A stretch of 64,000 nt of DNA from an uncultured Chlorobiaceae bacterium (GCA_903940125.1 CAJAJL010000059.1:58935-122934), one strand, 5' to 3'; positions 1 to 13,338 are shown, counted from the first letter of the stretch. The notes: generated by a model from the letters alone, not told the origin. Translations and numbers: made by a program.

Positions 1-200
1 AGTAAAATATCATGATCAGGGATGTCACTGGGTTCAATAAGATTAATATCTCCATAAGGTTTTTCTCCAAAATTAGCTTCGTACATTTTTTGGGCTGCAG
101 CGTCCCATTCTGATGAAAAAACATTTATACATCCGTGAGCTTCAAACCCTAATCGTATGCCGCCAACTCCTGCAAATAAATCTATTGTTTTAAATGTCAT
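1..200 (-). CDS. C5-cytosine DNA methyltransferase, N-terminal part (runs off the window edge)
   Basis: Manual translation from ATG at 200: MTFKTIDLFAGVGGIRLGFEAHGCINVFSSEWDAAAQKMYEANFGEKPYGDINLIEPSDIPDHDILL. Contains motif I (FAGxGG), motif II (SEWD) and motif III (GDI). Not in the ORF track. Confidence 0.92.
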   Translation of the reverse strand, partial: MTFKTIDLFAGVGGIRLGFEAHGCINVFSSEWDAAAQKMYEANFGEKPYGDINLIEPSDIPDHDIL

Positions 201-369: not shown

Positions 370-1710
370 TCAATTAATTTGGATACTTAACATTCCTGGT
401 CTAGACGCGTAGTTGCTTGTTGATGATATTAAATTCATAAGCATTTGCTCTCGTATTCTATAGGTAGGCGTAAAATTACTTGCATTATTTTCTAATACAG
501 TATAAGGGAAGCGTTGATGTACATATAGGTACATTGGTACTTGAGCGTCTTCTAATAAAAGTAAAGGAGATTTCCAAATCGCAGGAGAGGTGTTCTTGCC
601 TTTTTTAGTACTGTTTTCAGGTATTTCTGCCGCAAGAAGGTAAGATATAGGACCTGTATTATTTTGAGCATAGTCGCAAGCAGCACCAATTCTCACAAGC
701 TTTAATTTGCACTCTTTAATCAATTCGCTTTTAATTTTAAACTCGCTTTCAAATAAATTATTCTTTGTTATTCCAAATATATTCTGAAAGTCTACATCAT
801 TGTCCTTGAAAGGACATTCCACTACAGCACCCCAGTCGGTTGGGAGAATCGCCTCAAAGTCCTTATTTGCAATATGAAGCATCCTATTTATCTGTGCTGC
901 ATTATGAAGATTAACGGTTGGTGGTGTCGAATCTGAATGTTTAGTAATGGCTTTTTCCCAGAGTTCTCTCACACTTTTTTCTACTGGTTGATTAATGATT
1001 CGATCATTCAAGATCGGTGCTAAAGCTCTATTTAGTGCTGCTCGTGAATCTGCTTTTATATTGGTAGGGCCAACCGCCTCTCTTGCCAACTTGCTTAGTA
1101 ATCCGTCTATGCTAGGAGAAAAAGAGGTGGAGTTTTTATTTTCGAGAGGTATCAAGGACATTAATGATACCAGGGTGTCCCCAGCAGCTTTTAAAACATC
1201 CAGCTCCCAGTTAACCAATGCTGCGAGTTGGGGGTTGGTCGTTATAGCTTCATTTACAGCGTTTTTTAGAGCCTCCGTATTTGTTGGAATCCCATTGTCT
1301 ACATCAATAAAACTTGTCTTGTCAAGGCTTAGGACAGTCAATGGGTGTGTATAGGGCTTTTTTTTATCTAGATTATCATCTAGGTATTTATGTAGATCGT
1401 TGGCGTGTTGTGGGTGTTCAGTCCAAATTATCAGAATAAATGGTCCCCCATTTTCATGAATATTCTCTTCGAGAATATTAGCAATTAACGCAAAGTGGCG
1501 TTTTTCATCAGTACTAACCTGACCATCGATTAGGTGGAGGTCAATGAATAAGCATCGAACACCTCTAAACAAATTTGCATCAGGATCGTTTTCCTGGTTA
1601 TAATGCAATCCGACACAAGATGTGCCTAGCTGTTGAAAGGTATTCATAATAGCTCTTAAATGATCCTCTTTGTCATCAATAACAATGTAGCGTGGTGCTA
1701 TAAAAATCAT
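370..1710 (-). CDS. Receiver (response-regulator-like) domain protein with a long C-terminal domain of unknown function
   Basis: N-terminus has the acidic pocket (VIDD), a candidate phospho-Asp (LFIDLHL), the conserved T (IIWT) and a K (LDK). Start overlaps the upstream kinase stop (ATGA). Confidence 0.75.
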   Translation of the reverse strand: MIFIAPRYIVIDDKEDHLRAIMNTFQQLGTSCVGLHYNQENDPDANLFRGVRCLFIDLHLIDGQVSTDEKRHFALIANILEENIHENGGPFILIIWTEHPQHANDLHKYLDDNLDKKKPYTHPLTVLSLDKTSFIDVDNGIPTNTEALKNAVNEAITTNPQLAALVNWELDVLKAAGDTLVSLMSLIPLENKNSTSFSPSIDGLLSKLAREAVGPTNIKADSRAALNRALAPILNDRIINQPVEKSVRELWEKAITKHSDSTPPTVNLHNAAQINRMLHIANKDFEAILPTDWGAVVECPFKDNDVDFQNIFGITKNNLFESEFKIKSELIKECKLKLVRIGAACDYAQNNTGPISYLLAAEIPENSTKKGKNTSPAIWKSPLLLLEDAQVPMYLYVHQRFPYTVLENNASNFTPTYRIREQMLMNLISSTSNYASRPGMLSIQIN

Positions 1711-3869
1711 TCTTTCCCCCCCTTGTTAAAGATCAATGCCAAAACAGCCCCATCAAAGCCGGGCGGCACTTTTGCTTCATCGGCATCCGGGAATCCCAAC
1801 CGGCCATTGCTTAATTCCATAACTAAATTTGTATAGTATAGACCAATACCCATACCATCAGGTCGCCGGCTGAAGAATGGTCTGGTGATTCTGTCTGGGT
1901 TATCCTGGAAACCGGGCCCATTATCAGCAATGATTATTGCCGGTCCTTCAGCAAAGTCAGGTTCAATATTTAGGTATATTTGCCTTGGTGAGTCTAATTT
2001 GTTGGGCCATCGAACCTGTAGCCAATAGAAAGCATTGTCTAAGATATTATTCAGAGCTCCCAACATAAGCCCAAACGCAAAATTTTGGTTTATATCAGGG
2101 ACGTTTTCCTCTAGGGCAGGGCAAAGTAGTTTGACTTCATGGTTGCGGAAACGAACCCTGTTAATATCCCGCGCTCGTTTAAGTAGTTGTTTAAGGCTAT
2201 TTTCTTTCTGTTCGCCCTTGCGTAGTAGCTCGGTAAATCCATCAAGTACGCGGATTAATTCTTTTGCCTGAATCTGAACAAGCTCCATACTACCTCCAGC
2301 CACAATTGCATCATGTAATACTCGTACACCATGTTCTATCTCGTGGAAAACTATTGCCAGCCCCATTCCGGAAAGACCCGCCCGTAGCATAGTATCTCGC
2401 ATCTCGGTGTAGTTTCTTTCAACTTTGTCAATCAGTGGATCCAGTTCTTTTGAGATTTTATGTTTAGCTGCAACTTGACGCAAGGTCTGGAGTGGTTTGC
2501 TGATTTTCTCAACCTCTGGATCATGTCCTTTATCAGTAAGTTTTCGGATATTATCTTTATCGATTTTGCGTTCTATTTCTAAAATAGAAAGTGCTCCAAG
2601 CACGATTTCACGAAATCGAGTATAGGCATCATTTTCAACAAAGCCTTCTCTATTGGTTTTTTCTTTTAACTTAGAGCTTTCTTCAAGCTTTAGATCTACA
2701 GCTCCAAATATTATATTGCGGCTCACATTTCTCGTTGGGGTATTTACTCGGCGTAAATCAAGCCCAAGCCAATCATCTCCACGCTCACCGTAGTTATATA
2801 CTCGGATATAATCCCTGTATACTCGGACACCTCCGTTTTCATCCAATACATTCTCTACAAGTTGACTGTTTCCAAATTGGCTCAGAATGGTCCTATCCCT
2901 ATCAAATACATAAAACTCGCCGGTTATTAATCCTATACCTTCTGCATGAGCAGAGTCTGCAATAATTTTTTTGGATTTATTGCTTTTCCCTCGATCCGTA
3001 CCAAACTCATCTATGTCACGCTCAGGTGCGATCAATAGAGATTGAGAGTCTTTGCTTAGGTAACGAGGTGATAGTTTTATGCCCGAAATGCCTCTAAACT
3101 CATATGTCCAATCAAACTTTCCATTCTCATATGAAAACTTGAAATACCATGGGGCTCGCTGAAGAAGAATACTAATATCAGGTATATCTGAAATCCAATC
3201 AGGATGCTCAGGGACGTGCAATGTGGCTTCAAATCGGTCAGAGCGGTTTTCAAAAGGTGAGGCTATGGAGGTGATCTGCCGCTGAAGTCTGCGAATTTCA
3301 CTACGGGTCAAATTCACTTCTCGTAAGCTTGAAATTCTTAGTTTTGTTCCGGTTGTATTTCCAATAAAAACTTGTGGTGTTCTTTCTTCAATATTTACCT
3401 CAGCTTCTGATAAAAACTCTTTATCAATTAATTCAGCCCAATTAATGAACAATACGCATTCCAAACTATTCTCAGCCCTTGTAACCAGTTCTATTTTATC
3501 TCCAAGCTTATGTACTGCGAAGCGCCCTACTCCTTTTTCACCAAGTGGTAAGCGATGCAATAATGTTCGTCTCAGTTCTTTTTTTTGGAGTTCCCGGTGG
3601 TCATGTGCTGGTACAAGCCATATATCTTTAATTGTGTCGAGCGTCATGCCCACGCCATTATCTTCAACCAAGATTGATGGGCTATTAGTATCAATGCCTT
3701 CCAGTGTTACTTTCACCTTTTCAGCATCAGCATCGTAAGCGTTTTTTACAAGTTCAAAGATTGCCAATCGAGGACTACTGATGAGTTGATCTCCAAGTAA
3801 CTGAAGCAATCGTGCCCTTGGTCGGAATGGTAAAGTAAGTTTGTTGATTTTTTGCATTTTTGATGCCAA
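1707..3869 (-). CDS. MORC-like GHKL ATPase fused to a C-terminal histidine kinase
   Basis: N-terminal GHKL motifs ELVKNAYDA, EDNGVGM, GEKGVGRFA, GTKL. C-terminal H-box (VFHEI), N-box (NILDNA), G1 (DNGPGF) and F/G2 (FFSRRPDGMGIGL). Confidence 0.85.
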   Translation of the reverse strand: MASKMQKINKLTLPFRPRARLLQLLGDQLISSPRLAIFELVKNAYDADAEKVKVTLEGIDTNSPSILVEDNGVGMTLDTIKDIWLVPAHDHRELQKKELRRTLLHRLPLGEKGVGRFAVHKLGDKIELVTRAENSLECVLFINWAELIDKEFLSEAEVNIEERTPQVFIGNTTGTKLRISSLREVNLTRSEIRRLQRQITSIASPFENRSDRFEATLHVPEHPDWISDIPDISILLQRAPWYFKFSYENGKFDWTYEFRGISGIKLSPRYLSKDSQSLLIAPERDIDEFGTDRGKSNKSKKIIADSAHAEGIGLITGEFYVFDRDRTILSQFGNSQLVENVLDENGGVRVYRDYIRVYNYGERGDDWLGLDLRRVNTPTRNVSRNIIFGAVDLKLEESSKLKEKTNREGFVENDAYTRFREIVLGALSILEIERKIDKDNIRKLTDKGHDPEVEKISKPLQTLRQVAAKHKISKELDPLIDKVERNYTEMRDTMLRAGLSGMGLAIVFHEIEHGVRVLHDAIVAGGSMELVQIQAKELIRVLDGFTELLRKGEQKENSLKQLLKRARDINRVRFRNHEVKLLCPALEENVPDINQNFAFGLMLGALNNILDNAFYWLQVRWPNKLDSPRQIYLNIEPDFAEGPAIIIADNGPGFQDNPDRITRPFFSRRPDGMGIGLYYTNLVMELSNGRLGFPDADEAKVPPGFDGAVLALIFNKGGKE

Positions 3870-3929
3870 ATTTAGGGAAATATCAATTTGTATGTTAAAA
3901 TCTTTGTCTTACCTGGAGCAGAGAATATT

Positions 3930-5102
3930 TTAGTATTTGTTGTTTAACCAATGTGTTATCTGATCAAGATTGCCAAAATTTTTGATTAGCAACAATGCAA
4001 TATCGGCTGCACTTAAAATAACAATGGGGTGCTCATCTTTTTTTAGCTCTTTATAGGCCTGTGTAGATACATAAGATGTTGTAACGAGGACACCAAATAG
4101 CCTGTGTCGGAGTCGAGATATGAGTCGAGCTACCTCCTTGACACCAACGCCATTGTTAATTGCATAACATTTTACTTCCATTGCAAAGTCAACATCTATG
4201 CCACCTGGGCCTTGACAGATTTTATATTTGCCTGTGGCGTCTCTTCCTCCATCTCGCCACGGTTTTGTAATTTCAATGCTATGAACATTGGGCATGGCGT
4301 AGGTCAAAATATCGGCAGCAATGGGCTCAAATCCAGTAGGGTTTAATTTGTATGTGTTGTAAATCAGTTCAATTACAGTTCTTTCTTCCTTTGTGAGATC
4401 AGTTTGTTGCTTTGGCGATCGAATCTTTATAGATGATTCAGTTAGTAGAGGGGTGTATTTTCGATTCTGAACCCACTTAAGCCAAATGCTTGGAGCATGA
4501 ATGGATTTAACTGAATTTCCAATTAAAGCATCATGAATCCATTGTCTCTTGATCACAGGAGCATCAAGGATCGTAAATACGGATCTATAGTTTTGGAAGC
4601 GAATTCCTTCAGTATTCATTCTCCAGACAGCTGTAAGATCTTCATCACTACTCATTCCTTTAGCACTAGGCACAGCAATGCCAAGGAAGCGTGTGTCACG
4701 GTAAGATCCAGTCTTACCAAAAAGCAAAATAATCGGAAAGTTATCTATTGTTTGACTTTTTTGATGGGCAAAATCAAACAAATTTCTTAAAATATTATTG
4801 CAATCTCTTTTAGTATCATGTAAATCACTTGGTTCTCTTTTATCGCCATAATATATGAACAAGCCATTTTCTTTGTCGAGATGATCCGGCCAGTTTTGGT
4901 CAGAGAACCCTGTTTGTAGAACGAGAATTTTAAGTGATTCGACTTCGGTTCTAGGTGATCCTAGGCACCGAAATCCTGCCCCATTATCTACGTTCAGAAG
5001 TTTAGGCAGAGGATCGTCGGAGTAATTTCCATTCCTTGACCCTCCGTATACGCAGTCAACATGCAAATCCTGTTCTGAAAGATTGTCTTTGATTATATTC
5101 AC
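3930..5102 (-). CDS. AspBHI/MspJI-like modification-dependent restriction endonuclease (SRA-like N-domain plus Mrr-type catalytic domain)
   Basis: N-terminal motifs DCVYGG, DDPLPKLL, WPDHLD, YYGD, FQNYR; C-terminal DGGRDA...MEVKCY (D..ExK). Start moved from 5174 to GTG at 5102, which overlaps the MTase TGA and gives 390 aa. Confidence 0.82.
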   Translation of the reverse strand: MNIIKDNLSEQDLHVDCVYGGSRNGNYSDDPLPKLLNVDNGAGFRCLGSPRTEVESLKILVLQTGFSDQNWPDHLDKENGLFIYYGDKREPSDLHDTKRDCNNILRNLFDFAHQKSQTIDNFPIILLFGKTGSYRDTRFLGIAVPSAKGMSSDEDLTAVWRMNTEGIRFQNYRSVFTILDAPVIKRQWIHDALIGNSVKSIHAPSIWLKWVQNRKYTPLLTESSIKIRSPKQQTDLTKEERTVIELIYNTYKLNPTGFEPIAADILTYAMPNVHSIEITKPWRDGGRDATGKYKICQGPGGIDVDFAMEVKCYAINNGVGVKEVARLISRLRHRLFGVLVTTSYVSTQAYKELKKDEHPIVILSAADIALLLIKNFGNLDQITHWLNNKY

Positions 5103-6082
5103 GATACCATTTGAAGCTCTAACTCCATTATTTGATTTATCTTCGCAAAGATAACTTCCATCACTGGTGAGCAAACACCATTACCACAAAGTTTCACTTT
5201 GTCTCTGCGGGTGCCAATTGGCAGCAAGTGATTGCAACCTGTACCCATTGCTTTCATTAGCTCGGATGGTTGTAACATTCTAAGGTTAGGTCGATTATCA
5301 AGCCAAGTCACAAGACCGAATCTGTCAAGTGTTGTAACTGTTCTGAGGGGGTCCTCAAGCCTTTGCCAACCGCCCGCGTAATCTGACCCATAATAGACTA
5401 TCAAGAAATCTTTATTAGGCCCCAGTTCAGCTATAGCCCTCTCTGCTCGTTGAATAGTTGCCTTGGCTCTGGTTTCAGCATAGAGTGGGTTGGATTTGTA
5501 TTGTTTGGTCTGGTCAATGATTGAACTCGCACTAAGGCGTTGGTTGTCGCGAAGGGAGTAAAAATCGGCTTCTGTTATTCTGGTTTGTAGCCTATCGCAT
5601 ATCAGAAACATACGCTTTCTTGCTTGTGGGGTACCAAAATCTGCAGCATTAAGTAGTAAGGGATTAACTTTATAGCCTGCAGATTCAATCCCTTTTATCA
5701 GGTCGCTGTGTCTATTCCATTGTTTCATCCTTGGCACATTTTCTACTATAACCCACCTTGGGGACATTGCGAAAATCCAAGGAATGATGCCTAAAGCAGA
5801 TGCTTTACTTGTTTCGCAGCCGGGTCTTGAGCCTCTCGCTATAGAATGAGATGTACATTCGGGCGAAGTTAATAAAACGTCTGGCTGATACTTTAGAGCC
5901 AAACTATACGGATCAACTACTTCTATTTTAGCGTTTATGACTTCTGTATTTGGAAAATTGGCCTTATAGGTTTCTGTTGCTATATCCCAAGCATCAACAG
6001 CCAGTAAAGGTGATGCTCCCGCGTTCACGGCACCTCGAGCACCAAATCCTCCGCCACAGAAGAGGTCAACAAATTTTAACAT
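5099..6082 (-). CDS. C5-cytosine DNA methyltransferase
   Basis: Motif I (LFCGGG), IV (SPECT), VI (ENV), VIII (QARKR), IX (RMLQPSE), X (GNGV). Confidence 0.9.
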   Translation of the reverse strand: MLKFVDLFCGGGFGARGAVNAGASPLLAVDAWDIATETYKANFPNTEVINAKIEVVDPYSLALKYQPDVLLTSPECTSHSIARGSRPGCETSKASALGIIPWIFAMSPRWVIVENVPRMKQWNRHSDLIKGIESAGYKVNPLLLNAADFGTPQARKRMFLICDRLQTRITEADFYSLRDNQRLSASSIIDQTKQYKSNPLYAETRAKATIQRAERAIAELGPNKDFLIVYYGSDYAGGWQRLEDPLRTVTTLDRFGLVTWLDNRPNLRMLQPSELMKAMGTGCNHLLPIGTRRDKVKLCGNGVCSPVMEVIFAKINQIMELELQMVS

Positions 6083-6577
6083 AGGTACAATTTGTAAAGC
6101 GCATAACTTGGTTGATTCTCAATAGAGTGACTGCTTAGTGAGTAGTTTTACTAATTTCACTATACGGATCGGTGTATTTAAATCGTATTAATCGCGGCAC
6201 GATCAGGAGAAAGGCAAACTGTTTTATTCAAAATATGATCCAATACTTATACGACTATAACACTATAGGAATCCATAAGATGTGACCAAAAAACATTTTA
6301 ATGCTGCTTTTTTGTTTGTGCGACCGCCATATGCTCGAATATAGCTATTACATTCTTTTTAATGTCTTTATTTTGAAAAGCCCTGTTAATTTGCTTTGGT
6401 CTACTATTCCTTACAGCGTATAACCGTGCCTGTTATGTGAAGGGTCATTCTCGTATAAAAAGCTGATACACTATGAAATATTCGCGCCATTGACCGTTAC
6501 AAACAAACACGTTATCATGCAATAATTCCTTTTATTGATCACTCGCACAAAAGACTACAGAACACAGTTTTGTTTCA

Positions 6578-7021
6578 TCATGTCTCCTCGATAAATGGCT
6601 CATTGCCGCGAAGCCATATTGCAAAACGCTTGGTGATATCTCCAATATCTCTACTATTGTGTGACATAGCGCATTCCCATACGATTCCTACCCGCCATCC
6701 GCTTTCGAGCAAGGCTTGCGTCACTTTTTTGTCATTGTTTCGATTTCGATTAATTTTCTCTTTCCAGTAGTCAACCCGAGTTTTGGGACTTTTGAAAAGT
6801 AGGCAGTTGTGTCCATGCCAAAAGCATCCGTGTACAAATATTACTGCACGATATTTTGGTAAAACTATATCAGGCTTGCCAGGGAGGTCTTTTCTATGAA
6901 TCCGGAATCGGAAGCCTGCAGAGTGCAAAGCTTTTCTCATCAAGAGCTCTGGTTTTGTATTCTTGCCATGAATGCTTGCCATGATCCGACTTCGTGTTTC
7001 CGTACTTACGGTATCTACCAT
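6578..7021 (-). CDS. vsr: Very short patch repair endonuclease
   Basis: MVDTVSTETRSRIMASIHGKNTKPE, LPGKPDIV, FVHGCFWHGH, GWRVGIVWEC. Start reassigned to ATG at 7021. Confidence 0.93.
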   Translation of the reverse strand: MVDTVSTETRSRIMASIHGKNTKPELLMRKALHSAGFRFRIHRKDLPGKPDIVLPKYRAVIFVHGCFWHGHNCLLFKSPKTRVDYWKEKINRNRNNDKKVTQALLESGWRVGIVWECAMSHNSRDIGDITKRFAIWLRGNEPFIEET

Positions 7022-7202
7022 TTTTGAGGTTTGATGTCGTTTAGCTTCAAGTTTATTGGAATAAATGATTTGATTAGACTTAAGCGGTTTAATGCAGCTT
7101 ATACAATGAATCATTTACTGAAGCAAAATGAATAGAATATGAAAATTCCTTATCTTATTTTAAAAATTATAGCTATCAAAAAACTGTATGTAAGCACGGG
7201 GC

Positions 7203-7505
7203 ATGTTTATGCGGCAAGATTATAAACAGTGGCTAATCGATAAGCAGTATTCAGCCAATACGCGTATTACTCAGATGCACAGAGTAAAGAAGGTGGAAGA
7301 GGCCTATGGGAATCTTGATGAGCATTTTGCTAATGGAACTTATCAAGACGTATTAAATGCCTTGCTATATACCGCTGATGATGAAAAAGCTAACAAGCCA
7401 AATTCCTCAAAAATACAATTTCATGGGAATGTTAGGAATAATCTTCAATCTTACAAGTATGCTGCGGCACGTTATGTCTCTTTCCTTAAAAAGAAGAGGA
7501 TATAG
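7203..7505 (+). CDS. Hypothetical protein resembling the stand-alone N-terminal domain of NucS/DUF91-type endonuclease proteins
   Basis: 100-aa ORF. The pattern YKQWL...HRV.KVEEAYGNLDEHF...NPS/SSKIQF.GNVRNNLQSYK.A..RY is recalled from such proteins (recall only, not searched). Confidence 0.45.
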   Translation: MFMRQDYKQWLIDKQYSANTRITQMHRVKKVEEAYGNLDEHFANGTYQDVLNALLYTADDEKANKPNSSKIQFHGNVRNNLQSYKYAAARYVSFLKKKRI

Positions 7506-7513
7506 CTATCAAG

Positions 7514-7760
7514 TTACAGTAATTGATTAAATAGTATTCTATAGATAAGAACAAGCAAAGTTACTGAACTCAATCCCCCCCCCATACCCACCATCTCCAG
7601 TGCAAACTCATACTCCTTCCCAAACGGCAGCAGCAGCTGCTCCAAGTACTCAGGGAATACCTTTAGCCAGCTCACATAGTAGTAAGCCAGCACCTGATAG
7701 CCGCTGAAGCTTTTGCCAGCAATAAGCGGCACGCTGTAGCCTTCTTTATTCGGGCTCAGG
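7514..7760 (-). pseudogene. C-terminal remnant of a Bacteroidota/Chlorobiota TPR-type protein
   Basis: Reads NLSPNKEGYSVPLIAGKSFSGYQVLAYYYVSWLKVFPEYLEQLLLPFGKEYEFA with no proper start and abuts a vsr fragment. Family recognised from memory. Confidence 0.45.
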
Positions 7761-7875
7761 TTTTATATTCTTGCCATAATCCGGTTTCGTGTTTCAGGGC
7801 TTACTGTATCTACCATATTGTGTGTTGTATGTCGTTGAATATTAAAATTATTGCAATAATTGGTGTGGATGCACT
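7757..7875 (-). pseudogene. Degenerate second copy of the vsr 5' end and its upstream region
   Basis: ATG at 7816 gives MVDTVSPETRNRIMARI* versus MVDTVSTETRSRIMASIH at 7021. The upstream DNA is also alignable (atgtcgtt...ttattg.aataa...acttaa). Confidence 0.8.
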
Positions 7876-7975
7876 TAAATTAACAAGCAATAATCTCCGC
7901 ATCGAAATGATCTTAGGTTCGGCCAACACTCTAAGTGACATCAAGGCACTTATATAAAATTTAGCAAATATATCA

Positions 7976-8428
7976 TTGAGACTATCCAGAATACATTCCG
8001 GCCCCGTGCTGGATTTCTACACCCCGGACTTTACAACGCAGCTTGAGCTGCCGCTTGCCGCCGGTGCCATCTCCGCAGGCTTCCCATCTCCCGCCGAAGA
8101 GTACATCGAGCTTGCCATAGACCTGAACAAAGAGCTGATCAAGCACCCGGCCGCCACCTTCTACGCCAGAGTAAAAGGCAGCTCAATGATTGATGCCGGC
8201 ATTGCTGATGGCGACCTGCTCATCATTGACAAGGCGCTTGAGCCGAAAGACGGGGATATTGCTGTCTGCTTCATTGACGGAGAGTTCACGCTGAAGCGCC
8301 TGGCTTTGAAAGAGGACGGCCTCTACCTCATGCCTGCCAATGCCGAATTCAAGCCGATCAGGATCACCGAAGAGAATGATTTCCTCGTCTGGGGAATGCT
8401 TGCCTATATTGTCCACAAGCCGAGATAA
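7976..8428 (+). CDS. umuD: UmuD-like S24 autopeptidase (Pol V accessory subunit)
   Basis: Cleavage site SAGFPSPA, catalytic Ser (GSSM) and Lys (FTLKR); directly upstream of umuC. Confidence 0.92.
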   Translation: MRLSRIHSGPVLDFYTPDFTTQLELPLAAGAISAGFPSPAEEYIELAIDLNKELIKHPAATFYARVKGSSMIDAGIADGDLLIIDKALEPKDGDIAVCFIDGEFTLKRLALKEDGLYLMPANAEFKPIRITEENDFLVWGMLAYIVHKPR

Positions 8429-8451
8429 CTCCGCATCCGGAGGCTTTTCAA

Positions 8452-9726
8452 ATGTTCGCCCTTGTCGACTGCAATAACTTCTACGCCTCCTGCGAGCGTG
8501 CTTTCAAGCCCGCTCTGCGCCTGCGCCCTGTCGTCGTGCTTTCAAACAATGACGGCTGCATCATCGCCCGCTCTGAAGAAGCCAAGACGCTCGGCATCCA
8601 GATGGGCACACCAGAGTTCAAATGCCGCTTGCTGCTAAAACAGCATGATGTTGCAGTCTTCTCCTCGAACTATGCCCTTTACGGCGATATGTCCTCACGG
8701 GTAATGGCAACGCTGGCCGCTCTTGCTCCTGAAATCGAAGTCTATTCCATCGATGAAGCGTTTCTGGATATGTCGAGCTTCAGCCGCTTCGACCTGCCAG
8801 ATTATGCCAGGCAAATGCGCCGCACGGTCCGCCTGCATACCGGCATTCCGGTCTGCGTCGGCATCGCGCCAACCAAAACGCTTGCCAAGATTGCCAACCG
8901 ACTGGCAAAAAAGAATCCGCACTATCAGGGCGTCTGCGTGCTCGCAACCGCTGAGGAGATCCAGGCCGCACTTCTGCACACCAAGGTCGAGGATATCTGG
9001 GGCATCGGGCGGCAGTGGAGCAAGCTGCTGCAGGCAAAGCGCATAGAGAGCGCCGCTGACTTGGCGGCAGCGCCTGCGGCATGGGTGCGCAAGCACCTGC
9101 ACGTTGTTGGCGCCAGGATACAAGCAGAGCTGCAGGGCAAATCATGCCTGCCGATGGAGCTGGTGCGGCCCGCAAAGCAAAGCATCTGCACATCGCGTTC
9201 TTTTGGTCGCAACGTCAGCACGCTGGCCGAGCTGCAGCAGGCAGTGGCAACATTCGCCAGCAAATGCGCTGTAAAGCTGCGCAAAGAGGATTCGCTTGCT
9301 TCCCTGCTGACGGTCTTCATTGCGACCAGCCCGTTCGATGAATCAAGCGACCGCTATTGGGGAACGCGCACGGCAGCCCTGCCGCATCCGACGCAGGATT
9401 CCATAGCAATCCTGAAGGCAGCAGAGACTATTCTTGACGGTATATTTCGTGATGGAAATGTCTATAAAAAGGCTGGCGTTATGGTGAGCGGCATTGTGCC
9501 AAGAGCATCATGCAGCACAACGCTTTCGCTCTTTGCGGAAGAAGCGCCAGCGGCAAATGCGCGCGATGCAAAGCTCATGCAGGCCATGGATGCCATCAAC
9601 CAGCGGTATGGCAGCGGCACGGTGCGGCTGGCAGCGGAGAATGCCGAAAGCTGGAAGCCGCATCAGGAGCGGCTATCGCCACGTTATAGCACGCGGTTGG
9701 ATGAGATTATTGAGGTGCGGGTGTGA
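8452..9726 (+). CDS. umuC: Y-family DNA polymerase V subunit UmuC
   Basis: MFALVDCNNFYASCE, SNNDGC, FSSNYALYGDMSSR, YSIDEAFL, C-terminal LSPRYST. Confidence 0.95.
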   Translation: MFALVDCNNFYASCERAFKPALRLRPVVVLSNNDGCIIARSEEAKTLGIQMGTPEFKCRLLLKQHDVAVFSSNYALYGDMSSRVMATLAALAPEIEVYSIDEAFLDMSSFSRFDLPDYARQMRRTVRLHTGIPVCVGIAPTKTLAKIANRLAKKNPHYQGVCVLATAEEIQAALLHTKVEDIWGIGRQWSKLLQAKRIESAADLAAAPAAWVRKHLHVVGARIQAELQGKSCLPMELVRPAKQSICTSRSFGRNVSTLAELQQAVATFASKCAVKLRKEDSLASLLTVFIATSPFDESSDRYWGTRTAALPHPTQDSIAILKAAETILDGIFRDGNVYKKAGVMVSGIVPRASCSTTLSLFAEEAPAANARDAKLMQAMDAINQRYGSGTVRLAAENAESWKPHQERLSPRYSTRLDEIIEVRV

Positions 9727-9804
9727 AGTGTATCCCGTAACCATTGATTATCTTGAATACACATGCCACCTGGCAGGTCAACTCACCATACACTTGAAAC
9801 TTCG

Positions 9805-10125
9805 TTATGGGAAGTCAAATTTTGCTCCCAGCGAATCAATATAAGTTCGGCAGGACGGATACGTCCAATAACAGAAAAGAGCATCAATACTCAACATTGT
9901 CAAACCCATGCTCGCTACAACATCGAAAAATGCAGGCCAGTCGTCGTGGTGGTAGCCATACCGTGAGCCATTGGGGTAAAACACTCCACAACGATATCCG
10001 AAGCCCATTTTGTTTCGTTTGGATAGTTCGTCGTTGTATAGTCCATGCCAGAGATGCCAATGGAGAATGAATGAAAACTCCTTTGAACGAGCGATAAGGT
10101 TTGGATCAGGCATTGAAGGTGGCAT
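9805..10125 (-). CDS. Hypothetical protein
   Basis: 106-aa ORF with a plausible RBS (aaggaga) upstream; no motif recognised. Confidence 0.35.
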   Translation of the reverse strand: MPPSMPDPNLIARSKEFSFILHWHLWHGLYNDELSKRNKMGFGYRCGVFYPNGSRYGYHHDDWPAFFDVVASMGLTMLSIDALFCYWTYPSCRTYIDSLGAKFDFP

Positions 10126-10596
10126 TATGGTCTCCTTTATCTGATTTGTTACTCGTTATATACCACTTGTCACTTCATGAAACGGATTTTAAAACCATAA
10201 GAAATTAATATGTCAATTGAAATTTAGAGAGCTGTTGAAAGAAATACAAATTTTCACCTAAGCTATAAAACAGATTATTCAATGTGTGGTCAATTCGTTT
10301 TCTTTGAACTCAAGTATTTCATTGAGTAGCTCCACCAGTACGAGCTGCCTTTCGTCGAGGAGCAGGTGAGATAGACTTTTCAGCATTCCACAACATTGCG
10401 CCCGTGATTAACGTCAACTTTAAAAGCCTCTCCCTCAGCTCACAAGAGCCAGATTTCTCAGATAGCTCTTCATTGACACATGGCGGCCAAGCCCCAGCTT
10501 ATGGTGCATCCTGAAGCGTATGCTTTCCATCCCCCATAAAATTGTAAGACAATTCTTCAAGTTGGATTTACGACCTCGACTTAACGCGGGCAATGG

Positions 10597-13338
10597 TTAA
10601 TGTCGTTTAATAGGGATGGTATAAGTGCACACATAATCGCCACTGCGTTTGTAGTTGGTGCAACCCCAGAATTTACCGTATGGCCCGCTACGCTCCACCA
10701 TCGCACCACCACAATTTAGGCAGATTGGTATTGATGCACCACAAACCGGGTTGACACAGGTACGAAATCGTCCATTACTCTTCATGAGACCTCCGCATTG
10801 CGGACAGGGCTTTTCCATATGCTTACAGTATGGAAAGCAACTACAGCCCACGAACGCGCCATATTGGCCAGATTTTGGTAAAAGGGCACCACGACCACAG
10901 TCAGGGCATACGACGTGAGGAATATCCGCACACATAAGTCCCTCTGCGATCTCGTCTTTACAAACAGGATAAGCCGAGTCAACATCAAGCAACTCTTGTA
11001 CGAAGGATGAAGCTTCCGTTGGGTTGTACACCAAGTAGACGCGGTGGCGTGCACGAGTAAGTGCAACATAGAAGAGCCGACGCTCCTCAGCCAGCGGATA
11101 AGATTCTTGTTTAGGAAGAAGCCATTCTAAAATTGGATCTGTCGGCTTTTCACTTGGAAAGCCATTTTTGCCTTGCCCAAGGCCGAGAATCACAACAAAG
11201 TCGGCCTCTTTGCCTTTAGCAGAGTGCACTGTCATAAATTCAATGGTCAGAGGAGGGTATTGCGACTTCAATCGACGTTTAGCTACGGGTTGAAGCCACT
11301 CTTTAATGGTGAAGTTGTACCTTCCCAGTACCAGGACAATAGACCCTTCTCTCGAGTTGTTACATCTTCTACTGACGATTGCATCGAGAGCCATGCGGAG
11401 ACCGTTTTCATCCCGAACAGCACGGATCATTGACAATGCAGGTTGATCAACATAAACCTTTGACTTAATAGTCTTAGTAATCTGCGCAGGATTTTTCAAG
11501 ACAAATTCGGACGAAACTTTGCCAATCATGTTGTTGAACCTGAAAGTCTGTTCGAGGGATGTGGTTGCGGTTGCACCGAAGTAGCTTGAAAAGTCTCGAG
11601 TGTAAGCAATGTCGCTGCCAGTGAACCTGTAGATCGACTGCCAATCATCACCAACAGCAAATAGCCCCGATTCTATGCCTTGCTGACCCAAAGCTTTGAG
11701 CAATCGCGCCCTTGATTTATTAATGTCCTGAAACTCGTCTACCAGTATCTGTATGTAAGGTGATTGAAAAGCTCCTGCCTCGACATAGTCGGACGCCTTT
11801 CGAATCATGTCAGCGAAATCGATTTGACCCGAGACTGAAAGTTCAGTCTGATAAGCATCAAGAATTGGTGTGAAAAGAGATAATAATAAACAGAGACGTG
11901 ATGAATCTATATCGGATTGTGCCTTTTTGTTTAGTTCAGACAACGAATAATCGGACTCTTTGAAGAGTTTTAAGAAATCAGATAGCAGAATTGCAAACTC
12001 ATTGACTTGTGATGAGGCGCGAAGCTCATCCAGCATCTCCAGGCTGGAACGAGGGATCAACTCAACACCATTAGCTTTTAAAGCTTCTGCAAGGCGGGAT
12101 TCTAACAACCCCTCTCGTTTCAGAAACGAATATGTTTCGATGAGATTAGTCCCGTGAAGTTTGTGGAGATCCCGCTTCCAGTCGATACCACTCAGGTATT
12201 TATTTTGGTCAAAATGCGAAGGAGGGTTACCCGACTTATCCAATGCAAAATGCTCAATGTAGACATCATAATCAGGCAAATAAAAGTCCGGCTTGTACTG
12301 CCTATAGTCAGGTCCTGCAGTGTCGACTTTGTAGGCATGCTCATATATGTAGGCTACGCTATTGGCGTTGAGGAAGTTAGCAATGACAATCTCTTCGAAG
12401 CTTTTGACAACTTCGTTCTTTAACGTTCTCAGTTCATTAATACTCACATATTCATTGTATTCCCTAATTGAACTGAAATCGAAGGGGTTCCTGTAAGTGA
12501 ATTTTTCACTACCACAGTAGCGAATAATCAGCTCTCGGTAGTCGCGGTCATTGCAGCACTTCTTCAGCTGCTCATCAATGAACTTTAAAAATACCTGATT
12601 GTCATTAACCATGGGATGGATATCAGGACGACGTCCCTCAACAGCCCCGATTATTTCGAGGCCAAGCGCATGGAACGTTTTGACAGTGGGTGAGCCCTTC
12701 ACCTCCAAGCTTTTGAGACGTGAGTCTTGACGTTCCTGCATCTCTTTGGCCGCTTTTTGCGCGTATGCTAGCATAAGCAACTCATGAGGCTTGGCTCTAT
12801 TTGATGCGACGAGATAGCCGGCTCGACCAATCATAGTACTTGTTTTTCCTGTGCCGGCTCCAGCAAGTACTAAGTTACAATCTTCATCAACCACGCACGA
12901 ACGACGCTGGGAGTTGGTTAAAGGCTGGCTCTCAATAGAGTCGAAGAATGACCCATATTCAACTAGCTCTGATAAAACAAAAGCATCATTGGCAGCTGCA
13001 ACCAACTCCTCAGACCTTGCCATGAATGTAACAAGGGCCTGCACCTTTTTAAGTTGCTCTTGAGATGCTGAATAACGCCAACCAAATATTTTTGTGGATT
13101 TAACGACATCTTTTGCGGATATCAAAAGACGAAGGCGCTGTGAGTTCCGAGCATATGACTTGCGTGACAGTAAGTCCTCTAACGCAGCCGAGACATCATC
13201 AAGGTGCTTAGCAATTGGAGCAATACGAGGGGATAAGCGCTTATTTGCAGAGTACCAAAGGAACACGGCACACGCGAGCAATATGAAAATGATGGGTATA
13301 AGCAACCCCGAGGATAGACCCAGGTTCAGTATATTCAC
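10597..13338 (-). CDS. helD: DNA helicase IV (HelD)/UvrD-family SF1 helicase with N-terminal hydrophobic helix and C-terminal topoisomerase-type Zn ribbons
   Basis: Walker A (AGAGTGKT), DEFQD, GDDWQSIYRF, TVHSAKGKE, EERRLFYVALTRAR, KPDFYL insert; CPDCG...GCS and CLNCG...GCTNY ribbons. Confidence 0.88.
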   Translation of the reverse strand: MNILNLGLSSGLLIPIIFILLACAVFLWYSANKRLSPRIAPIAKHLDDVSAALEDLLSRKSYARNSQRLRLLISAKDVVKSTKIFGWRYSASQEQLKKVQALVTFMARSEELVAAANDAFVLSELVEYGSFFDSIESQPLTNSQRRSCVVDEDCNLVLAGAGTGKTSTMIGRAGYLVASNRAKPHELLMLAYAQKAAKEMQERQDSRLKSLEVKGSPTVKTFHALGLEIIGAVEGRRPDIHPMVNDNQVFLKFIDEQLKKCCNDRDYRELIIRYCGSEKFTYRNPFDFSSIREYNEYVSINELRTLKNEVVKSFEEIVIANFLNANSVAYIYEHAYKVDTAGPDYRQYKPDFYLPDYDVYIEHFALDKSGNPPSHFDQNKYLSGIDWKRDLHKLHGTNLIETYSFLKREGLLESRLAEALKANGVELIPRSSLEMLDELRASSQVNEFAILLSDFLKLFKESDYSLSELNKKAQSDIDSSRLCLLLSLFTPILDAYQTELSVSGQIDFADMIRKASDYVEAGAFQSPYIQILVDEFQDINKSRARLLKALGQQGIESGLFAVGDDWQSIYRFTGSDIAYTRDFSSYFGATATTSLEQTFRFNNMIGKVSSEFVLKNPAQITKTIKSKVYVDQPALSMIRAVRDENGLRMALDAIVSRRCNNSREGSIVLVLGRYNFTIKEWLQPVAKRRLKSQYPPLTIEFMTVHSAKGKEADFVVILGLGQGKNGFPSEKPTDPILEWLLPKQESYPLAEERRLFYVALTRARHRVYLVYNPTEASSFVQELLDVDSAYPVCKDEIAEGLMCADIPHVVCPDCGRGALLPKSGQYGAFVGCSCFPYCKHMEKPCPQCGGLMKSNGRFRTCVNPVCGASIPICLNCGGAMVERSGPYGKFWGCTNYKRSGDYVCTYTIPIKRH

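Follow-up and report, generated by a model that had tools for sequence, protein, structure and literature searches.

The first 7.1 kb of a 64,000-nucleotide stretch of DNA from an uncultured Chlorobiaceae bacterium (GCA_903940125.1, CAJAJL010000059.1:58935-122934; hereafter the window, with positions counted from its first letter) contain a run of five genes on the minus strand. In order, these encode a Vsr repair endonuclease, a C5 cytosine DNA methylase, a nuclease, and the two proteins considered here, P0001 and P0002 (Table 1). P0001 combines an ATPase of the MutL/MORC type with a histidine-kinase core, and P0002 is a receiver protein. A previous sequence-only reading of the window had singled out this pair as a putative DNA-sensing phosphorelay. 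We find that the pair is a compact, annotation-invisible branch of a module known in silico, that it is strictly linked to a C5 methylase, and that it may form the non-methylase arm of a restriction-like cassette.

Table 1. The P0001/P0002 pair, its domains, and the genes around it (positions in the window).
Feature	Position	Strand	Size or residues	Remarks
P0001	1707-3869	minus	720 aa	Soluble paraMORC-type GHKL ATPase fused to histidine-kinase core
N-terminal GHKL (Bergerat) ATPase domain of P0001	3255-3827	minus	residues ~15-205	
Middle region of P0001	2520-3254	minus	residues ~206-450	
Histidine-kinase core of P0001	1710-2519	minus	residues ~451-720	Helical DHp with H-box, and CA domain with N, G1 and G2 boxes
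P0002	370-1710	minus	446 aa	Receiver protein, uncharacterised output
Receiver (REC) domain of P0002	1291-1710	minus	residues 1-140	
Helical domain of P0002	871-1290	minus	residues 141-280	
Beta-rich C-terminal domain of P0002	373-870	minus	residues 281-446	
AspBHI-family methyl-directed restriction endonuclease	3930-5174	minus		RE_AspBHI_N (E 1.6e-53) and Mrr_cat; PADLOC mREase_II (E 1.8e-132)
C5 cytosine DNA methylase (Dcm)	5099-6082	minus		PF00145 (E 2.5e-34); PADLOC DrmMII-like (E 1e-68)
Vsr very-short-patch repair endonuclease	6578-7114	minus		TIGR00632, 158.6 bits against a cut-off of 97.9
C5 methylase fragment at left edge of window	3-200			Part of a separate HaeII-type restriction-modification pair

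P0001, whose true start is likely the ATG at residue 5, contains two GHKL modules. Pfam placed HATPase_c_3 at residues 34-148 (E 1e-17) and also reported HATPase_c, whereas the histidine-kinase models of NCBIfam covered residues 527-714. In NCBIfam, the N-terminal 200 residues matched the N-terminus of the BbrUII/HgiDII restriction-enzyme family (E 1.4e-24) as well as MutL models. A profile of the P0001 family searched against the PDB matched kinases of the FixL/HK853 type over residues 505-697 and MutL over residues 27-92. We then aligned 21-29 homologues of 49-73% identity. The N-terminal Bergerat motifs (E39/N43/D46, D70xGxG74 and G110..G113xG115) were invariant, as was G174-T175, a candidate fourth ATPase motif. 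The same was true of the H-box H509-E510 (H509 codon at 2343-2345) and of the ATP site of the kinase, with its N box N608/D611/N612, G1 box D649xGxG653 and G2 box G672xGxG676. Between the two modules, residues 206-340 are variable and residues 341-450 highly conserved (GGxRxYRD...DDWLGLDLRR...EKTNREGF). The conserved part is presumably the S5-like transducer of the ATPase, and its placement fits the arrangement described by Iyer et al (2008). We did not detect a membrane segment in P0001, in which the highest Kyte-Doolittle mean over 19 residues was 1.1.

The start codon of P0002 overlaps the stop codon of P0001 in the sequence ATGA. Across the P0002 family, the receiver residues D12, D13, D57 (codon at 1540-1542) and K131 are invariant and T97 is nearly so. 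In an AlphaFold model of the whole protein (predicted local distance difference test score, pLDDT, 84.7) these pocket residues lie at the ends of strands 1, 3, 4 and 5, as they do in CheY: D12 and D13 follow beta-1, D57 follows beta-3, T97 ends beta-4 and K131 follows beta-5. A Foldseek search of the PDB with this model returned dozens of solved receiver domains with a probability of ~1.0 and a target-normalised template-modelling (TM) score of 0.55-0.71. By sequence, P0002 had no match in Pfam, NCBIfam or PADLOC, and neither the protein nor its C-terminal alignment matched the PDB in sequence and profile searches. The family comprises at least 247 clusters at 90% identity, none with a Pfam match. 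One homologue (28.5% identity, E 7e-45) is encoded at 3492-4787 of MT838277.1, a 5.5-kb unannotated contig from human faeces that is labelled 'Bacteriophage sp.'; its viral nature is taken from that label.

Because the whole P0002 model matched receiver domains only, we modelled residues 140-446 separately (pLDDT 90.2) and searched with that part alone. About 30 of the top 50 matches in the PDB were toxins of the MazF family (E 0.05-0.5, probability at most 0.96, target-normalised TM 0.47-0.65). In BFVD, a library of viral structures, the top match was a PemK/MazF toxin (E 0.009, probability 1.00, target-normalised TM 0.67). These matches are a lead, at the level of predicted structure, that the last ~165 residues of P0002 adopt a MazF/PemK/CcdB-like fold. 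Within this beta-rich domain C345, D346, R418, E421 and R437-P-G are invariant and R340 is nearly so. C345-D346 belongs to an ACDYAQ motif and is retained down to the most divergent members. In the preceding helical domain W168-E169, D236, W251 and H279 are invariant, and Foldseek gave no significant structural match for this domain. We considered a HEPN nuclease reading of the helical domain and rejected it: the sole candidate motif, N275-R276-M-L-H279, is mis-spaced for Rx4-6H, R276 is replaced in several members, and HEPN structures were not among the top fold matches of the C-terminal model. Neither sequence nor fold revealed a helix-turn-helix, a winged helix or any other DNA-binding output in P0002. 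The output module forms 1290 clusters at 50% identity and was attached to a receiver in all of the 150 top matches, in proteins of ~430-460 aa in total.

The anatomy proposed in the sequence-only reading was thus recovered throughout: two GHKL modules with an H-box histidine in one soluble protein, ATGA coupling to a 446-aa partner with an intact receiver pocket, and a C-terminal region without a helix-turn-helix that carries ACDYAQ.

To see which genes accompany the pair, we clustered 37 loci, consisting of 35 from species-representative genomes and three from protein look-ups, after removal of duplicates, together with that of the window. They come from at least six phyla (Pseudomonadota, Acidobacteriota, Bacteroidota (Chlorobia), Myxococcota, Actinomycetota and Bdellovibrionota). 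The near or full invariance of both ATP sites, the H-box and the receiver pocket over this range argues for a working relay from kinase to receiver. The kinase gene lay directly 5′ of the receiver gene in 36 of 36 loci that include both, and the 4-base ATGA overlap recurred in 17 of 28 related loci. A C5 methylase gene was present within ~2 kb of the pair in every locus with enough flanking sequence (33 of 33); the four loci lacking one are cut by contig ends. The methylase gene was found upstream of the pair, downstream of it or convergent with it. The methylases range from 322 to 640 aa and share a median pairwise identity of 25%, compared with 49-73% for the kinase protein across the same loci. 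All-against-all clustering of the open reading frames (ORFs) in the 37 loci yielded no further conserved genes apart from shadow frames.

Vsr was encoded in 26 of the 37 loci and in most loci directly beside the pair. This neighbourhood, and the similarity of the P0001 N-terminus to MutL models, would suit a role in repair, in which the MutL-like ATPase is a portable stand-in for MutL, stimulating Vsr where the methylase of the cassette has given rise to T:G mismatches, and the kinase and receiver merely tune the repair. E. coli MutL is indeed established to stimulate Vsr (discussed in PMC2292703). We consider this very improbable, since at least seven fully flanked loci (L020, L022, L028, L029, L032, L033 and L036) have a methylase but no Vsr, and it is not evident what a histidine kinase, a receiver or a toxin-fold domain would do in patch repair. 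In addition, Pfam and NCBIfam scans showed that the C-terminal dimerisation/endonuclease region of MutL is absent from P0001.

In the window, the gene for an AspBHI-like nuclease lies between those of the methylase and the kinase, and the sequence-only reading had offered two functions for the relay: licensing of this nuclease, or activation of a separate effector in the C-terminus of the receiver protein. An AspBHI-like nuclease was encoded in only 4 of the 37 loci, at differing positions, which does not support licensing of that nuclease by the pair; the constant partner is the C5 methylase, and the nuclease is an occasional neighbour outside the core cassette. The second suggestion fared better, with a conserved receiver-attached module, invariant polar residues and a weak but consistent predicted match to the MazF/PemK fold. 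The same counts bear on the idea that the pair is an ordinary two-component system of the cytoplasm, acting on the transcription of nearby restriction-modification genes or licensing the AspBHI-like nuclease. Its kinase-receiver chemistry appears intact from the conserved residues, and signalling cascades that control restriction-modification systems were proposed by the authors of PMC8011034. We nevertheless judge it improbable: P0002 has no DNA-binding output, the AspBHI-like nuclease is rare and other nucleases are variable or absent, and loci such as L005 leave only the methylase and Vsr to be regulated.

The cassette is mobile. It is carried on conjugative plasmids of Burkholderia, Rhizobium and Agrobacterium, adjoins integrase or Tn7-like genes in some loci, and is patchy in the genus of the window, where 3 of 60 other genomes contained it at 47-50% identity. 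In an actinobacterial copy (Demequina litorisediminis, L040 ~4266-11131) the kinase, receiver and methylase genes are each split into several frames, as if the whole system had been inactivated together. In RefSeq the proteins of this branch are labelled 'ATP-binding protein' or 'hypothetical protein'. Two gammaproteobacterial loci contain an extra ORF that clusters with the kinase family beyond a convergent methylase and Vsr (L024 13097-14176 and L025 14033-14872); these may encode a second GHKL protein or a partial duplicate.

We then asked if any part of the pair varies together with the methylase. Seven segments of P0001 and P0002 were compared with methylase identity over 27 loci, a test that is indicative only, as sequences that share ancestry are not independent of one another. 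After correction for overall relatedness, no segment tracked methylase identity (partial correlations -0.13 to 0.13). This result argues against a classical two-subunit restriction enzyme, in which P0001 and P0002 together would recognise and cut the sequence that the methylase protects. Such an enzyme would explain why the pair occupies the 'restriction slot' beside the methylase and Vsr and why its ATPase is related to the BbrUII/HgiDII enzymes. It would not explain why the kinase is so well conserved while the methylases are largely unrelated outside their catalytic core, and no nuclease fold was recognised; we regard it as the least probable of the explanations weighed here. Most likely, the pair either borrows its specificity from the methylase, which would serve as the recognition subunit as in Type I and Type III systems, or responds to a generic cue.

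A generic cue would also fit an addiction or guard module. Here the relay would watch over methylation in the host, through either the methylase itself or the state of the chromosome, rather than inspect incoming DNA, and a failure of methylation would release the toxin-fold effector. Loss of the element, inhibition of the methylase by a phage, or depletion of S-adenosyl-methionine could each be the trigger, leading to post-segregational killing or abortive infection. A generic read-out of a working methylase fits the strict linkage to C5 methylases of any specificity without a co-varying segment, and the predicted toxin-type fold, carriage on plasmids and integrative elements, and joint decay of methylase and pair in one locus are all in keeping with it. 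To our knowledge there is no mechanism by which a MutL-type ATPase senses methylase activity, which counts against this explanation. The methylases moreover share only a catalytic core, making a conserved protein-protein contact uncertain, and the frequent Vsr and the restriction-enzyme-like ATPase suit a DNA-directed system equally well. Overall, we find an addiction or guard function rather unlikely.

The known systems closest to the pair are the HEF_HK/Response_reg_2 elements, which were predicted by comparative genomics to be two-component-system-like (Bellieny-Rabelo, Pretorius and Moleleki, 2021, PMC8011034). Their kinase-like protein consists of HATPase_c_3, HEF_HK and HATPase_c, is related to paraMORCs, and adjoins a Response_reg_2 protein, C5 methylases and Vsr; the authors speculated on its role in signalling and gave no mechanism. 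The sequence-only reading had correctly stated that such modules are known from comparative genomics. P0001 shares with HEF_HK proteins the order HATPase_c_3, DHp with a His-Glu H-box, and HATPase_c, is likewise soluble, and has the same receiver-like, methylase and Vsr neighbours. In a BLASTP alignment with a bona fide HEF_HK protein from the same genus, P0001 was colinear over residues 15-423 (E 4e-26) and 501-685 (E 2e-08), and H509 fell on the 'HEF' histidine of the PF19191 protein.

Membership of the window pair in these Pfam families was ruled out by direct model tests. HEF_HK (PF19191) did not match P0001 at E <= 0.1, nor its gene in a six-frame search of the whole genome, and Response_reg_2 (PF19192) did not match P0002, its own genome (E <= 10) or 36 family members. 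As a positive control, the bona fide system of the same genus scored 93.7 bits with PF19191 and 146.5 bits with PF19192. The systems also differ in size: beside its methylase, a bona fide HEF_HK system encodes ~1000 aa for the kinase-like and 535-620 aa for the receiver-like protein, against 720 and 446 aa in the window pair, and P0001 lacks ~280 residues of coiled-coil insert that are found in the bona fide kinase. Both receiver families have the receiver positions, a C-D motif that follows a strand, and an R-x-G at their end. hmmsearch with profiles of the window family found nothing in Response_reg_2, and hhalign of the two families gave weak scores (E 0.037 for the receiver and E 0.078 for the C-terminal 'CD ... 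R-x-G' region). By sequence comparison, homology to the HEF_HK class is demonstrable for the kinase only. An exact match to a characterised system was not found; the closest system has been described in silico only, and its Pfam models missed the pair.

The pair also resembles the prokaryotic MORC/paraMORC GHKL ATPases of restriction-modification operons, which include the BbrUII/HgiDII family (Iyer, Abhiman and Aravind, 2008, PMC2292703). These have intact Bergerat ATPase motifs, cytosine methylase and Vsr neighbours, and mobility in common with it, but they carry or recruit nucleases or helicases. PMC2292703 describes no histidine-kinase core with a receiver partner, and the terms 'receiver' and 'two-component' do not occur in its text. 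With MazF/PemK/CcdB toxins, which supplied the best structural matches in the PDB and the viral library, P0002 has no sequence or profile similarity, and its domain shares one polypeptide with a receiver and a helical domain where such toxins have an antitoxin as partner. Detocs is reported to be a defensive two-component system with a TPR sensor and an ATP nucleosidase as effector (Rousset et al, 2023, bioRxiv 10.1101/2023.01.24.525353), whereas the window pair has a GHKL sensor and an unrelated effector. The logic is the same, namely a soluble kinase-like sensor that signals to a receiver fused to an immune effector in place of a DNA-binding domain. The window pair has no buffer receiver of the kind reported for Detocs, which is not known to be linked to a methylase.

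Domain anatomy, conservation of the catalytic and phospho-acceptor residues, gene coupling, strict methylase linkage, mobility and the homology of the kinase to HEF_HK are established. GHKL ATPases dimerise on DNA or a client in an ATP-driven manner, and histidine kinases relay movement of a sensor through their DHp. Taking this behaviour together with the intact ATP sites, H-box and receiver pocket, the coupling, linkage and mobility of the genes and the non-DNA-binding output, we infer a methylase-dependent, restriction-like cassette with an effector that is switched by phosphorylation. We hold this reading, including a role in defence, to be about evenly balanced between right and wrong. 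It is favoured by the N-terminal ATPase, whose nearest counterpart is found in the genuine BbrUII/HgiDII restriction enzymes, and by the colinearity of the kinase with bona fide HEF_HK proteins that likewise have a methylase and Vsr as neighbours.

The cassette would consist of three or four genes, for a C5 methylase, the GHKL-kinase, the receiver-effector and in most cases Vsr, with the pair as its non-methylase arm and a phosphorylation-switched output in place of a free-standing nuclease. The methylase would mark host DNA, and Vsr would repair the T:G mismatches that arise from 5-methylcytosine. P0001 may sense DNA, by analogy with other ATPases of the MutL/MORC type, and its ATPase would dimerise, in an ATP-dependent manner, on DNA judged to be foreign. 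The resulting movement would pass through the helical DHp to the kinase core and lead to phosphorylation of H509, from which the phosphate would be transferred to D57 of P0002. The receiver switch could then free or assemble the C-terminal helical and MazF/CcdB-like module, most likely a nuclease or a toxin, which would stop the invader or the infected cell.

A number of results weigh against this restriction-like reading. The MazF-like fold match is weak and falls short of customary significance (E 0.009-0.5, ~8-10% identity), and Pfam PemK_toxin (PF02452) did not match P0002. When the P0002 family was compared by hhalign with 14 PemK toxins of related genomes, the E value was 0.25 over 12 columns, that is, no similarity; given the lack of profile similarity to PemK, the MazF assignment stays a fold-level lead. 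We did not recognise a nuclease or any other catalytic family in P0002 by sequence in Pfam, PADLOC, NCBIfam and PDB searches, and neither protein has a recognisable methylation-reading feature by which self could be told from non-self. None of the PADLOC defence models matched the pair beyond its N-terminal ATPase. An ordinary restriction enzyme (AspBHI-like, MvaI/BcnI-like or a type II enzyme) is also encoded in the window and in some other loci, and where this is so the methylase may serve that enzyme instead. Finally, no member had been the subject of an experiment in the literature searched to October 2026, where recent papers continue to describe the role as "proposed".

One could further envisage a restriction-modification system whose output is a signal rather than a cut. 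The methylase would be its specificity subunit, the ATPase would clamp unmodified sites, and the kinase would act through the receiver on a toxin of the MazF/CcdB fold to produce an abortive response. This is a tentative proposal that we think will more probably fail than hold. If true, epigenetic self-marking would be coupled to immunity in a new way, and a DNA-dependent GHKL ATPase would be the sensor of a histidine kinase.

Predictions of MORC/paraMORC modules linked to methylases date back to 2008, and those of the kinase-receiver version to 2021. The branch described here is small (four genes; 720 + 446 aa) and abundant in metagenomes, and because it is unseen by Pfam, NCBIfam and PADLOC, present-day pipelines for annotation and defence finding miss it. 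Being compact, it offers a practical model in which to ask if a GHKL ATPase can serve a histidine kinase as its sensor, whether His-Asp relays operate in bacterial immunity more widely than in Detocs, and how a methylase can mark self on behalf of a partner without specificity of its own. Any connection with the eukaryotic MORC proteins, readers of epigenetic marks, would widen this interest.

The methylase of the window retains its SPECTSHS and ENV motifs. Its ORF overlaps that of the AspBHI-family nuclease at ~5099-5174, and the two form a coupling of a 5-methylcytosine-directed nuclease with a C5 methylase (3930-6082, minus strand). The same nuclease family is found beside the pair in L007, L018 and L036; in L018 it adjoins the methylase, in L036 it adjoins the kinase gene, and the contig of L007 stops within the nuclease. 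On the other side, the methylase fragment at the left edge of the window is one half of a HaeII-type restriction-modification pair that is complete to the left of the window (L042 10177-12200), where a 322-aa C5 methylase (PF00145, E 6.5e-94) overlaps a 352-aa HaeII restriction endonuclease (PF09554, E 1.6e-156). The pair of interest thus lies between a methyl-dependent nuclease and a second methylase, as the sequence-only reading had placed it, and the second methylase belongs to a separate system. Next to the HaeII-type pair, an IS110-family transposase occupies two ORFs (DEDD_Tnp_IS110 and Transposase_20, L042 8493-9913); this split transposase bordering the island is probably a frameshifted or inactivated insertion sequence.

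A scan for promoters and terminators gave counts no higher than those of shuffled sequences, and its results were not used. Beyond Vsr, the window contains umuD-like (Peptidase_S24) and umuC-like (IMS, IMS_C, DUF4113) genes on the plus strand (7976-9726). The G+C content is 0.35-0.43 in the restriction-modification island and 0.55-0.58 in the umuC stretch, a contrast that suggests separately acquired DNA. Further along, a gene on the minus strand (10597-13338) encodes a 913-aa helicase of the UvrD type with C-terminal zinc ribbons of the topoisomerase-I type.

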